Virus genome (UHGV): UHGV-0053376
Strand: one strand, 5' to 3'
Source: a virus
Length of the DNA: 10,524 nt
In this document: positions 5,919-7,143 of the stretch, piece by piece
Position numbering within the stretch: position 1 is the first letter of the stretch
Layout: every line of letters starts with the position of its first letter
Made by a program: the position numbers and the translations under genes
The notes under the pieces: generated by a model
Database searches by the model: none
Told to the model about the DNA's origin: nothing
What the model saw: the letters and a program-made list of their open reading frames with translations, nothing else

Positions 5919-5949
5919 GTCCATAAGAAAGCCCCTCCGGAGAGGGGCT
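5919..5949 (-). terminator. Minus-strand intrinsic terminator, back-to-back with the plus-strand one
   Basis: Stem gcccctc 5931-5937 / gaggggc 5942-5948 with tetraloop cgga. On the minus strand it is followed by UUUCUUAUGGAC (complement of 5919-5930). Confidence 0.45.
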
Positions 5950-6209
5950 GGAGAGTGGCGCTATGTGCCATTGCATGGTGCCGGGTGCCTCCCGGTGAGT
6001 TCAGCCCGGTGACACTAAACCCGCATATTCTCGCTTACGATCATCAAAGAGATCATACCGTTCACCAGTCGCCCCTCCGCACAGGGGGATTCACCATGCG
6101 AAATTTTTTTAACAAATGCTCAGCCTGACAGGCAACTGTCAACTTACTGAATTGTGAGGAATTTAACACTTCACAGCACAATATCTTTCCAGCGCCCCAA
6201 AATCATCAG

Positions 6210-6236
6210 GACAGGAGAAAATCTTCTCCCCCTGTC
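6210..6236 (-). terminator. Hairpin overlapping the lipoprotein stop codon (possible weak terminator)
   Basis: ggagaa 6214-6219 / ttctcc 6224-6229 inner stem, plus outer gaca / tgtc pairing. On the minus strand it is followed by CUGAUGAUUUUGGGG, a moderately U-rich tract. Confidence 0.3.
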
Positions 6237-6663
6237 AGAGTTTAAAATCCAGCACGCCATTTCTAAATGCTTTATATACTCCTGAAGACGGTGGTGATGG
6301 TATATCAGCATTCTTTACTGCATTCATCGCTTCACGACATAAATCGGGATCACCGCTTTCTCTTTTAACCTGTAGCAGAAGACCATTCGGGGCCATATAC
6401 ATTCTCAGTGAACACTCTTTTCCTGAATACTTACTCGCATCCTTTAACTGTTCTTCTATGGCTTTCCTGACCTGAATGGCATACTGCCTGATTTCTTCAC
6501 TGGCATCAGGGGTACGTTCCGATGAGCTCAAATTTTGCGACTTTATTAATTTATCTGAGTGATACAGAGAAGCATCATAATTATTTGTCGATACATCTTT
6601 TGTGCAGCCAGTTGTCAGACTGGCTAATATCAAAACAAGAACTGGTACAGCACGGCAATACAT
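6235..6663 (-). CDS. Outer-membrane lipoprotein with a TolA C-terminal (domain III)-like domain, 142 aa
   Basis: Signal peptide MYCRAVPVLVLILASLTTG-C with lipobox-like TTGC and Thr at +2. C-terminal 85 aa (IRQYAIQVRKAIEEQLKDASKYSGKECSLRMYMAPNGLLLQVKRESGDPDLCREAMNAVKNADIPSPPSSGVYKAFRNGVLDFKL) aligns with E. coli TolA domain III as I recall it (…YAGQIKSAIESKFYDASSYAGKTCTLRIKLAPDGMLLDIKPEGGDPALCQAALAAAKLAKIPKPPSQAVYEVFKNAPLDFKP), including both Cys. Good SD (GGAGATGG) and low GC relative to flanks. Confidence 0.8.
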   Translation of the reverse strand: MYCRAVPVLVLILASLTTGCTKDVSTNNYDASLYHSDKLIKSQNLSSSERTPDASEEIRQYAIQVRKAIEEQLKDASKYSGKECSLRMYMAPNGLLLQVKRESGDPDLCREAMNAVKNADIPSPPSSGVYKAFRNGVLDFKL

Positions 6664-6860
6664 TTATCCATCTCCATATTAACAAGAACAATTATCTATA
6701 AAATATAGTAAATATGCGGGATCCGGGAGGACTTGTAACTATCATCTCCGGATCAGCATGTAGTTTTTATTTTTCCGGATGATATATGCCGCAATAATAC
6801 CCCTGCATACAGATGCCTGCAAATATCTACGAAGCATCCGGCGAGAATAAACAAGGAAGT
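6664..6860 (-). promoter_or_regulatory. AT-rich upstream region of the lipoprotein gene containing repeated CCGGAT motifs (candidate promoter/operator)
   Basis: gatccgg 6720-6726 is inverted relative to ccggatc 6748-6754; tccggat repeats at 6774-6780; catccgg at 6835-6841 is inverted relative to ccggatg 6775-6781. The region is AT-rich with several TATA-like hexamers on the minus strand. Exact -35/-10 not assignable by eye. Confidence 0.3.
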
Positions 6861-6863
6861 CTG

Positions 6864-6885
6864 AGGCTATCTTATATGATAGCCT
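6864..6885 (-). terminator. Perfect 8-bp hairpin downstream of the tRNA genes (candidate tRNA-operon terminator)
   Basis: aggctatc 6864-6871 / gatagcct 6878-6885 with loop ttatat. On the minus strand it is followed by CAGACUUCCUUGUUUAUUCUC, moderately U-rich. Confidence 0.3.
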
Positions 6886-6941
6886 GTTGCTCAAAAGACA
6901 ATGATTCACTCATCAGAACCAACAACGCATAATGCAGATAA

Positions 6942-7018
6942 TGGACCGCCATCGAGGACTCGAACCCCGCGCAGCCAGCTTCGAAGGCTGGCGCTCTATC
7001 CCGATGAGCTAATGGCGG
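6942..7018 (-). tRNA. tRNA-Arg, anticodon UCG (would read CGA/CGG)
   Basis: Reverse complement folds as a cloverleaf: acceptor CCGCCAT / ATGGCGG, D-stem GCTC / GAGC with G18-G19 and A20, anticodon stem CCAGC / GCTGG with loop CTTCGAA (U33, anticodon UCG, A37), T-stem CGGGG / CCTCG with T-loop TTCGAGT, 3' CCA encoded. Begins with an unusual C1-G72 pair. Confidence 0.8.
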
Positions 7019-7027
7019 TATGTGATA

Positions 7028-7103
7028 TGGTGGCCCTTGCTGGATTTGAACCAGCGACCTGGCGATTATGAGTCGCTCGCTCTCACCACTGAGCTAAAGG
7101 GCC
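7028..7103 (-). tRNA. ileZ: tRNA-Ile2-like, anticodon CAU (lysidine type), ileZ-like
   Basis: Reverse complement GGCCCTTTAGCTCAGTGGTGAGAGCGAGCGACTCATAATCGCCAGGTCGCTGGTTCAAATCCAGCAAGGGCCACCA is 76 nt with CCA encoded and anticodon loop CUCAUAA. It is nearly identical to E. coli ileX as I recall it. Position between the Q-side genes and the cargo slot matches phage tRNA genes in Stx-like prophages. Confidence 0.85.
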
Positions 7104-7143
7104 GGGCATAGGATAATAACGGTACGTAACTAATTCTGCAATA

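Follow-up and report, generated by a model that had tools for sequence, protein, structure and literature searches.

The two tRNA genes on the minus strand of UHGV-0053376 (the whole 10,524-nt stretch of viral DNA, referred to below as the window) are identified by sequence comparison as the already known ileZ and argN of Stx-type lambdoid prophages of E. coli, a widely annotated module. They very probably correspond to the first two genes in the tRNA array located in the late region of such phages and supply decoding of rare codons. The observation made in the preliminary description was accurate and at the same time ordinary, as it concerns a known prophage tRNA module. The modest new details are a conserved acceptor end (U73 with C1-G72) that marks the argN scaffold, a private promoter-like element kept across arrays, the relatives of argN with shifted anticodons, and a probable remnant of a third gene, argO, with argO and stx exactly replaced by a gene for a TolA-like lipoprotein.

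ARAGORN run on the 10.5-kb window called exactly two tRNA genes, both on the minus strand, and Rfam recognized the same two loci. The ileZ gene, of the tRNA-Ile2 type with a CAU anticodon, occupies positions 7103-7028, and the 77-nt argN gene, encoding tRNA-Arg(UCG) with C1-G72, U73, A20, C35 and G36, occupies positions 7018-6942; in both the CCA end is encoded. The 9-nt spacer UAUCACAUA (7019-7027, minus strand), extending from the CCA of ileZ to C1 of argN, is kept in Ile-Arg-Arg arrays. The layout given in the preliminary description, two tRNAs 9 nt apart downstream of a methylase, was borne out, since both genes were called and the PF01555 gene ends 40 nt upstream of ileZ; the tRNA-finder check that it had proposed for the region returned an Arg tRNA with anticodon tcg and a second tRNA with cat. 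Scores against RF00005 were 72.5 bits (E 1e-14) for ileZ, with one A.C mismatch at 27-43, and 55.1 bits (E 6.6e-10) for argN, with no non-canonical pair in the alignment, the gathering score of the family being 29. Both loci are real tRNA genes.

A BLAST search of phage genomes showed that the fragment 6921-7200 is approximately 98 % identical to 230 Stx-converting phages. In one of them, Stx2a_F765 (AP012534), the matching genes are annotated as ileZ, argN and argO and are followed by stx2A and stx2B; ARAGORN assigned to the three tRNAs the anticodons CAU, UCG and UCU, respectively. The names used here were taken from the GenBank annotation of AP012534. The comparison with these three Stx-phage genes, suggested beforehand, proved exactly apt: ileZ of the window is identical to that of Stx2a_F765 at 76/76 positions and argN at 76/77. 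Among the RefSeq matches listed for E. coli, 16 genomes were 100 % identical to the window over 6850-7200, and PGAP annotates the two genes there as 'tRNA-Ile' and 'tRNA-Arg'.

The gene order around the pair was established from Pfam, Rfam and the PGAP annotation of an identical locus. It runs from RusA through the Q antiterminator, a small ORF, the methylase, the tRNAs, the TolA-like gene and an STnc100-like RNA element to a SASA/NanS-p esterase, DUF1378, DUF826, holin, DUF1327, lysozyme, an Rz-like gene and Csp. The late antiterminator Q gene (8777-9598, minus strand; PF03589 Antiterm, E 5e-51) is considered to define the late operon that holds the tRNAs. The DNA methyltransferase gene (7144-8202, minus strand; PF01555, E 1.5e-43, and PGAP at the identical locus) stands directly upstream of the tRNA array. 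On its other side there is a cargo (moron) gene of 142 aa with a TolA C-terminal domain (6235-6663, minus strand; PF06519 TolA, E 5.7e-23), whose translation contains a lipoprotein-like signal (…LASLTTGC) and which is preceded by a promoter-like site found in the promoter scan (6823-6794, minus strand). By its gene content the window is the late part of a lambdoid prophage that resembles Stx phages but lacks the toxin, a placement of small practical weight. As in Stx/lambdoid phages, the array follows Q/PR' in the late operon and precedes the moron slot with the lysis genes behind it, and this would be its usual site in Stx-type lambdoid prophages of both E. coli and Shigella. The succession of Q, the PR'/tR'-like sites, methylase, tRNAs, moron, STnc100 element, NanS-p esterase, holin and lysozyme agrees with that of Stx phages.

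The window shares with the Stx2 array of the 933W/Sakai type, represented by Stx2a_F765, the 9-nt spacer, the 13-nt spacer following argN, the promoter-like element and the late-operon position of the array; the STnc100 element and the NanS-p esterase also follow the array in both. It differs from Stx2a_F765 in that only the first 8 nt of argO are kept, along with what is probably a decayed anticodon arm, the TolA-like lipoprotein gene stands in place of stx2AB, the Q gene belongs to a different type (273 aa, PF03589) and Q is separated from the tRNAs by a complete DNA methylase gene.

The promoter-like element of the array was located at 7141-7113 (minus strand) and is composed of the −35 motif TTGCAG (7141-7136), a 17-nt spacer and the −10 motif TATTAT (7118-7113), the latter ending 9 nt ahead of G1 of ileZ. 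It agrees with the consensus at 8 of 12 positions, which is below the scanner threshold, so it was not listed by the promoter scan, and the case for an ileZ-proximal promoter rests on conservation and not on the scan. When 10 arrays were aligned, TTGCA and TTATTAT at fixed spacing were invariant in all ten, and the sequences upstream of the −35 motif fell into two unrelated families, corresponding to the 3' end of the methylase or to the Q-proximal region. Conservation that starts exactly at the −35 motif speaks for a promoter belonging to the array itself, from which the tRNAs could be expressed in the lysogen, and the ileZ-argN module appears to travel with this element.

Transcription of the array may thus proceed from its own sigma-70-type promoter directly upstream of ileZ and, upon induction, also by readthrough of Q-modified polymerase from PR'. 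The sequence TTGATT-16-TAAATT that follows Q (8771-8744, minus strand) is PR'-like, and we take it to be a putative PR' on the basis of its resemblance to the lambda PR' sequence and its position after Q. It is followed by a tR'-like terminator with a strong hairpin and a T-run (8694-8679, minus strand), approximately 85 nt downstream of the Q gene, and by a second terminator-like site (8366-8349, minus strand), both found in the terminator scan. Because of these sites the transcription of the tRNAs from PR' would need Q antitermination. The transcript would then be cut into two mature tRNAs with genome-encoded CCA ends; the encoded CCA and the conservation of the promoter-like element speak indirectly for such expression and processing.

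The CAU tRNA had been called ileX/ileZ-like, and this was correct: it is identical to K-12 ileY at 70/76 positions, shares its acceptor stem and anticodon loop, and is a tRNA-Ile for PGAP. When both ileX and ileY of K-12 are considered, the identity is 68-70/76, and ileZ has the T stem, the anticodon loop and the encoded CCA in common with them, while the acceptor stem is that of ileY, including C4-G69 and C5-G68; ileZ therefore has the CAU anticodon in an ileX/ileY-like body and not in that of a tRNA-Met, as judged against ileY. The six differences between ileZ and ileY include a double change in the uppermost pair of the anticodon stem, where A27.C43 replaces G27.U43, so that the G27.U43 pair of ileX/ileY is absent from ileZ. 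A27.C43 was found without exception in the full-length (76-nt) ileZ copies, and 101/118 collected copies were identical to that of the window. The G27.U43 pair in ileX/ileY contributes to recognition by TilS, and a protonated A.C pair can mimic the G.U geometry. It is expected that ileZ reads AUA after modification of C34, the lysidine being added by the host TilS.

The second tRNA of the pair was compared with the tRNA-Arg genes of E. coli K-12 (argQ/Z/Y/V, argX, argU and argW), the loci being picked by gene name and read from the MG1655 record. Their annotated anticodons are ACG in four, CCG, UCU and CCU, in agreement with the earlier remark that UCG is missing from the K-12 set. The sequence likewise confirmed the C1-G72 acceptor end ascribed to this tRNA: argN begins with 5'-CCGCCAU and ends with AUGGCGG-U-CCA, which gives C1-G72 together with a U73 discriminator. 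The U73 residue is a detail absent from the preliminary description. All K-12 tRNA-Arg genes compared have G1-C72 with A73 or G73, and among ten K-12 tRNAs compared C1-G72 was found only in proM. The identity of argN to the Arg tRNAs of K-12 is just 57-73 %. It resembles argQ/V/Y/Z (ICG), argX (CCG), argU (UCU) and argW (CCU) in its length of 77 nt, its class (I), its D-loop size and its possession of A20, C35 and a purine at position 37; apart from the UCG anticodon and the C1-G72/U73 end, it differs from them in having U15/G48 in place of G15/C48.

The identity set of E. coli tRNA-Arg comprises A20, C35, U/G36 and A/G73, of which A20 and C35 are the main ArgRS determinants (PMC9976931). The D loop of argN contains A20, as do those of all the phage and K-12 Arg tRNAs compared and of 11/11 argN-family members, and the anticodon UCG provides both C35 and a G at position 36. 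The purine discriminator found in all four K-12 Arg species is replaced by U73 in argN. This departure from the arginine identity set could make the charging of argN less efficient, and it lowers the confidence in efficient charging; the assignment to arginine, based on the anticodon, is unchanged. The ArgRS that serves the K-12 Arg isoacceptors presumably accepts argN as well. This host enzyme would charge argN via A20, C35 and G36, and the U34 of argN would allow CGA and CGG to be read. A K-12-type host, which has no UCG tRNA-Arg, would depend on the ICG tRNA alone for CGA and on the single-copy CCG tRNA alone for CGG, so the pair would add decoding capacity.

Members of the argN family were found in 2185 of 5426 complete E. 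coli genomes (~40 %), in 1-8 places per genome and with identity ranging from 100 % to ~77 %. Conservation of the cloverleaf and of the acceptor end was evaluated in eleven BLAST-derived members spanning this identity range; in the pattern scans of GTDB and IMG/VR the 3' end was preset (GGCGGTCCA), which makes these scans unusable for the conservation of U73 and G72. The argN cloverleaf with stems of 7/4/5/5 bp was paired in 96.5 % of cells over the 11 members, compared to 29-52 % for slid controls, and compensatory changes on both sides were seen at four pairs (7-66, 27-43, 30-40 and 51-63). C1-G72 occurred in 10/11 members, the remaining one having U.G, and U73 in 11/11, which indicates that the odd acceptor end is a conserved signature of the argN scaffold family and not damage to this copy.

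These data bear on the possibility that argN is a decaying pseudogene or a poorly functional tRNA, in which U73 blocks efficient arginylation and which is a passive rider with ileZ. Such a view could draw on the violation of the A/G73 identity element (PMC9976931), on the decay of the neighbouring argO in the same lineage and on the stem mismatches of some family members, e.g. those in 118UI and B1172, but it is made very improbable by the persistence of U73 and C1-G72 throughout the family down to 77 % identity, by the compensatory stem changes with A20 and C35 invariant, and by the occurrence of argN in ~40 % of complete E. coli genomes, often in multiple copies.

The argN scaffold carries various anticodons. 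Besides UCG, it was found with UCU in Nissle 1917 and M15 and with UUU in SMS-3-5, UMNF18 and TW11681; the UUU members resemble argN, not the host lysT, and have C33 in place of U33. One could also imagine that argN is a counter-defence or insulated tRNA, whose C1-G72/U73 end escapes a tRNA-targeting nuclease or toxin of the host or a competitor (colicin D-type, CDI or other tRNases) or which replaces host tRNA-Arg depleted in the course of infection. The family-wide conservation of this end in spite of the varying anticodon would fit, as would its difference from all four K-12 tRNA-Arg species and the low identity of argN to host tRNAs (57-73 %). However, this analysis identified no nuclease that tells tRNA-Arg species apart by positions 1-72 or 73, the anticodon loop CUUCGAA is host-like with no sign of the escape mutations found in other phage tRNAs, and for a temperate phage whose ileZ is a near copy of a host gene supplementation fits better than evasion, so that this explanation is considered highly unlikely.

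Two narrower proposals concerning argN were rejected. A tRNA-His-like acceptor stem of 8 bp with A(-1) paired to U73 does not agree with the relatives, in which the base at −1 is A, U or G while U73 is invariant. Escape of the anticodon loop from tRNA-Arg-specific nucleases was dismissed, as the CUUCGAA loop resembles the host loops and positions 32-33 and 37-38 are as in argU.

It is also conceivable, though quite unlikely, that the argN body (C1-G72, U73, A20 and U15/G48) constitutes a phage-specific chassis that has repeatedly been given new anticodons (UCG, UCU, UUU) and whose acceptor end has been selected for something beyond decoding. If this were true, the end might insulate the tRNA from tRNases or toxins specific for acceptor ends, or alter the kinetics of charging or processing. 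The one thing that speaks for this reading is the conservation of the scaffold, which occurs beside a near-invariant ileZ and a shared private promoter. The conserved C1-G72/U73 end and the relatives with shifted anticodons are of modest interest, mainly to tRNA specialists.

The composition of the arrays was surveyed in 128 scaffold matches from IMG/VR, GTDB and the window. The combination Ile-Arg(UCG)-Arg(UCU) was present in 70 arrays, Ile-Lys(UUU)-Thr(UGU)-Gly(UCC) in 32/128 and Ile-Arg(UCG) alone in 9-10/128; a further mosaic composition was Ile-Arg-Thr-Gly. Three tRNAs have been described in Stx2 phages (PMC7946995) and two in phiP27 (PMC4631060). The third member, argO encoding tRNA-Arg(UCU), is missing as an intact gene from the window, which places it in the minority of two-tRNA variants. 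The Ile-Lys-Thr-Gly arrays, as in E. coli SMS-3-5 and Shigella flexneri, have the same ileZ, promoter-like element and position after Q as the window, and the tRNA in their second slot is built on the argN scaffold (~80 % identity, C1-G72, U73, A20); they differ from the window by the UUU anticodon with C33 for U33 in this slot and by two further tRNAs in place of argO. Among GTDB species representatives the argN scaffold was restricted to E. coli, Shigella, another Escherichia, Salmonella diarizonae, Citrobacter, Edwardsiella and one MAG.

The statement that no third tRNA is visible held for an intact gene, as none was detected by ARAGORN in the window or by Rfam at E<=10 in 6650-7150. It did not hold for a truncated and probably decayed argO, which an alignment with the Stx2a phage placed at ~6928-6885 (minus strand). 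The two sequences stay homologous for 21 nt beyond argN, a stretch made up of the 13-nt spacer and 8 nt of argO, and their homology breaks at ~6920. The first 8 nt of argO, GCGTTGTT (6928-6921), are kept identical and are followed by a diverged D-arm region; 6902-6887 matches the argO anticodon arm at 14/16 positions, one nt out of register and with UUU for UCU, and the remnant has no T arm or 3' acceptor strand. In a shuffle test the score of this local alignment was reached 8 times in 1000 for Stx2a argO and 109-138 times in 1000 for four other argO alleles. The near-correct register and the shuffle score make it probable rather than proven that 6902-6887 is a decayed argO anticodon arm. Directly after the remnant there is a perfect 7-bp inverted repeat, GGCTATC-N6-GATAGCC (6865-6884), without a T-run.

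Homology to the Stx2a phage returns at ~6156, just ahead of the STnc100-like element, which in the Stx2a phage is directly downstream of stx2B. From the break at ~6920 and the return at ~6156 it is deduced that the segment ~6157-6920, containing the argO remnant and the TolA-like gene, replaces argO and stx2AB. In this lineage argO has been truncated just after the anticodon arm, with its 5' part probably decayed, by a recombination that put the TolA-like lipoprotein gene into the slot of argO and stxAB. The argO-remnant junction was found at an identity of at least 98 % in ~120 of 5426 complete E. coli genomes (125 with some match), always in the chromosome, and an identical remnant is also present in five viral contigs. 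Among deposited phage genomes no argO-remnant/TolA junction was detected, save a partial 80 % match to the TolA-like gene in mEp460_ev081. Since in a second, independent two-tRNA type (L060, L072 and L132) argO is cut just past the anticodon loop, the argO anticodon arm looks like a recurrent exchange boundary. This argO-internal boundary would be a point of cargo exchange, with Shiga toxin in some phages and the TolA-like lipoprotein here.

Alternatively, the tRNAs might be mainly landmarks of recombination and module exchange, acting as homology anchors or being former attachment sites where lambdoid phages trade the moron that follows (stx, TolA-like and others), with decoding secondary or dispensable. 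The end of Stx2a homology inside argO after 8 nt and its return at the STnc100 element, the two independent two-tRNA types that both stop just past the argO anticodon loop, the joining of two unrelated upstream contexts exactly at the −35 motif of the promoter and the mosaic arrays (Ile-Arg-Arg, Ile-Lys-Thr-Gly, Ile-Arg-Thr-Gly) would all be in line with this proposal. Nothing in a simple landmark, however, would require that cloverleaves stay intact, that stem changes be compensatory, that CCA be encoded or that a promoter be conserved, nor is the identity of ileZ in 101/118 copies in favour of this proposal. A predominantly landmark function is therefore regarded as unlikely, although the landmark and decoding roles are not exclusive.

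The preliminary description had also proposed that tRNAs of this kind boost the translation of low-GC cargo genes. Codon usage was compared between 13 window genes (2426 codons) and 33 K-12 genes (9211 codons). ATA was used 11.5 times per 1000 codons in the window vs 3.4 in K-12 (3.4x, p = 5e-6) and CGG 9.9 vs 4.0 times (2.5x, p = 0.001). No enrichment of CGA was detected in the window genes (2.9 vs 3.8 per 1000 in K-12, not significant). AGA (6.2 vs 1.1 per 1000, p = 2e-5) and AGG (6.6 vs 0.7 per 1000, p = 2e-7) were enriched as well.

A whole prophage with the same module, that of the well-assembled 2012C-4502 (44 genes, 9208 codons), was also analyzed; strain G1/2 was left out of the codon counts because its assembly is full of frameshifted genes. 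Relative to K-12 the enrichment in the 2012C-4502 prophage was 2.8x for ATA, 1.75x for CGA, 3.25x for CGG, 6.7x for AGA and 10x for AGG, and it concerned early and late genes alike. As AGA and AGG are enriched the most even though argO has been lost, and early and late genes do not differ, the enrichment of rare codons is a general property of the prophage that is unmatched to the tRNA set and is not concentrated in cargo genes. This prophage-wide, generic enrichment agrees with the finding that lambdoid phages with these tRNAs are neither better nor worse codon-adapted than those without them (PMC4631060). The pair would add decoding capacity for host-rare codons that are 2-3 times more frequent throughout the prophage.

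The proposal of a cargo boost stood only in part: ATA and CGG are enriched in the window, but CGA is not, the TolA-like gene has no CGA or CGG codon and the enrichment extends over the whole phage. Supplementation of rare codons on the scale of the whole phage is plausible and is the preferred explanation; its cargo-specific version fails for argN. The usual claim that such tRNAs serve the cargo gene is tempered by the occurrence of rare codons all over the prophage. The three cargo genes named in the preliminary description contain together 7 ATA, 3 CGA and 4 CGG in ~970 codons. In the TolA-like gene ATA accounts for 4 of 6 Ile codons, compared to 15 of 20 in stx2A, and AGA or AGG for 5 of its 8 Arg codons.

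The moron slot, the cargo position between the tRNA array and the lysis genes, was occupied in the window by a minus-strand gene (6235-6663) encoding a 142-aa protein that combines a TolA C-terminal domain (PF06519, E 5.7e-23) with a lipoprotein-like signal (…LASLTTGC). In Stx phages exactly this position is held by stx2AB. The TolA-domain gene is preceded by its own promoter-like site at 6823-6794. The module was present in approximately 125 of 5426 complete E. coli genomes; the only deposited phage with a related gene was mEp460_ev081 (80 % identity, partial). It is tempting to speculate that the prophage supplies the periplasm with a TolA-domain decoy, by which Tol-dependent colicins or filamentous phages could plausibly be blocked.

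On its right-hand side the exchangeable moron slot is bounded by an STnc100 element (5919-6128, minus strand), identified by a strong Rfam match of 177.7 bits. It separates the cargo gene from the NanS-p esterase gene, and its 3' end forms a terminator-like hairpin (5949-5930). In the Stx2a phage Stx2a_F765 (AP012534), STnc100 lies directly 3' of stx2B and adjoins AsxR on the opposite strand. Among the collected comparison sequences, L001 carries the element at 2321-2526, and L145 has it in five tandem copies (16328-19279), the fivefold repeat of the 2012C-4502 prophage.

A second, independent two-tRNA variant was found 3' of argN in the comparison sequences L060, L072 and L132. The 5' half of argO is otherwise intact in these sequences and stops immediately beyond the anticodon loop (…CCTTCTAAGCAG/CTGTGG…, the slash marking the break). 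The similarity of the window remnant to argO is lost at the same point, and this coincidence suggests that the argO anticodon arm is a recurrent breakpoint. Directly after the remnant, at the recombination junction, there is a perfect 7-bp inverted repeat (GGCTATC-N6-GATAGCC, 6865-6884). Because it lacks a T-run, this repeat does not stand out as a terminator.

In ileZ (7028-7103) an A27.C43 mismatch occupies the site of G27.U43 in the host ileX and ileY. This double change is fixed in all full-length (76-nt) ileZ copies collected, and a wobble-like geometry may be preserved. In argN (6942-7018) U15 and G48 are present, whereas the Arg tRNAs of K-12 have the G15-C48 Levitt pair. Since the M15 variant shows a coordinated change to C15 and A48, the results suggest that the unusual tertiary 15/48 pair is maintained.

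The C1-G72/U73/A20 scaffold of argN was also found with a UUU or UCU anticodon in two sets of relatives, L013, L014 (for example at 701-777), L016, L018 and L020 on the one hand and L012 and L015 on the other. The UUU forms are annotated as tRNA-Lys, lie in Ile-Lys-Thr-Gly arrays 3' of the late antiterminator gene Q, and carry C33 in place of U33, which is near-universal in tRNAs. One copy, that of TW11681, lacks a PGAP annotation. These relatives look as if the anticodon had shifted on a phage tRNA chassis.

At the end of the lysis cassette, a minus-strand Rfam match to the cspA thermoregulator (307-691, 114 bits) overlaps a gene for a 70-aa cold-shock-domain protein (334-546), an arrangement shared with other lambdoid prophages carrying csp genes.
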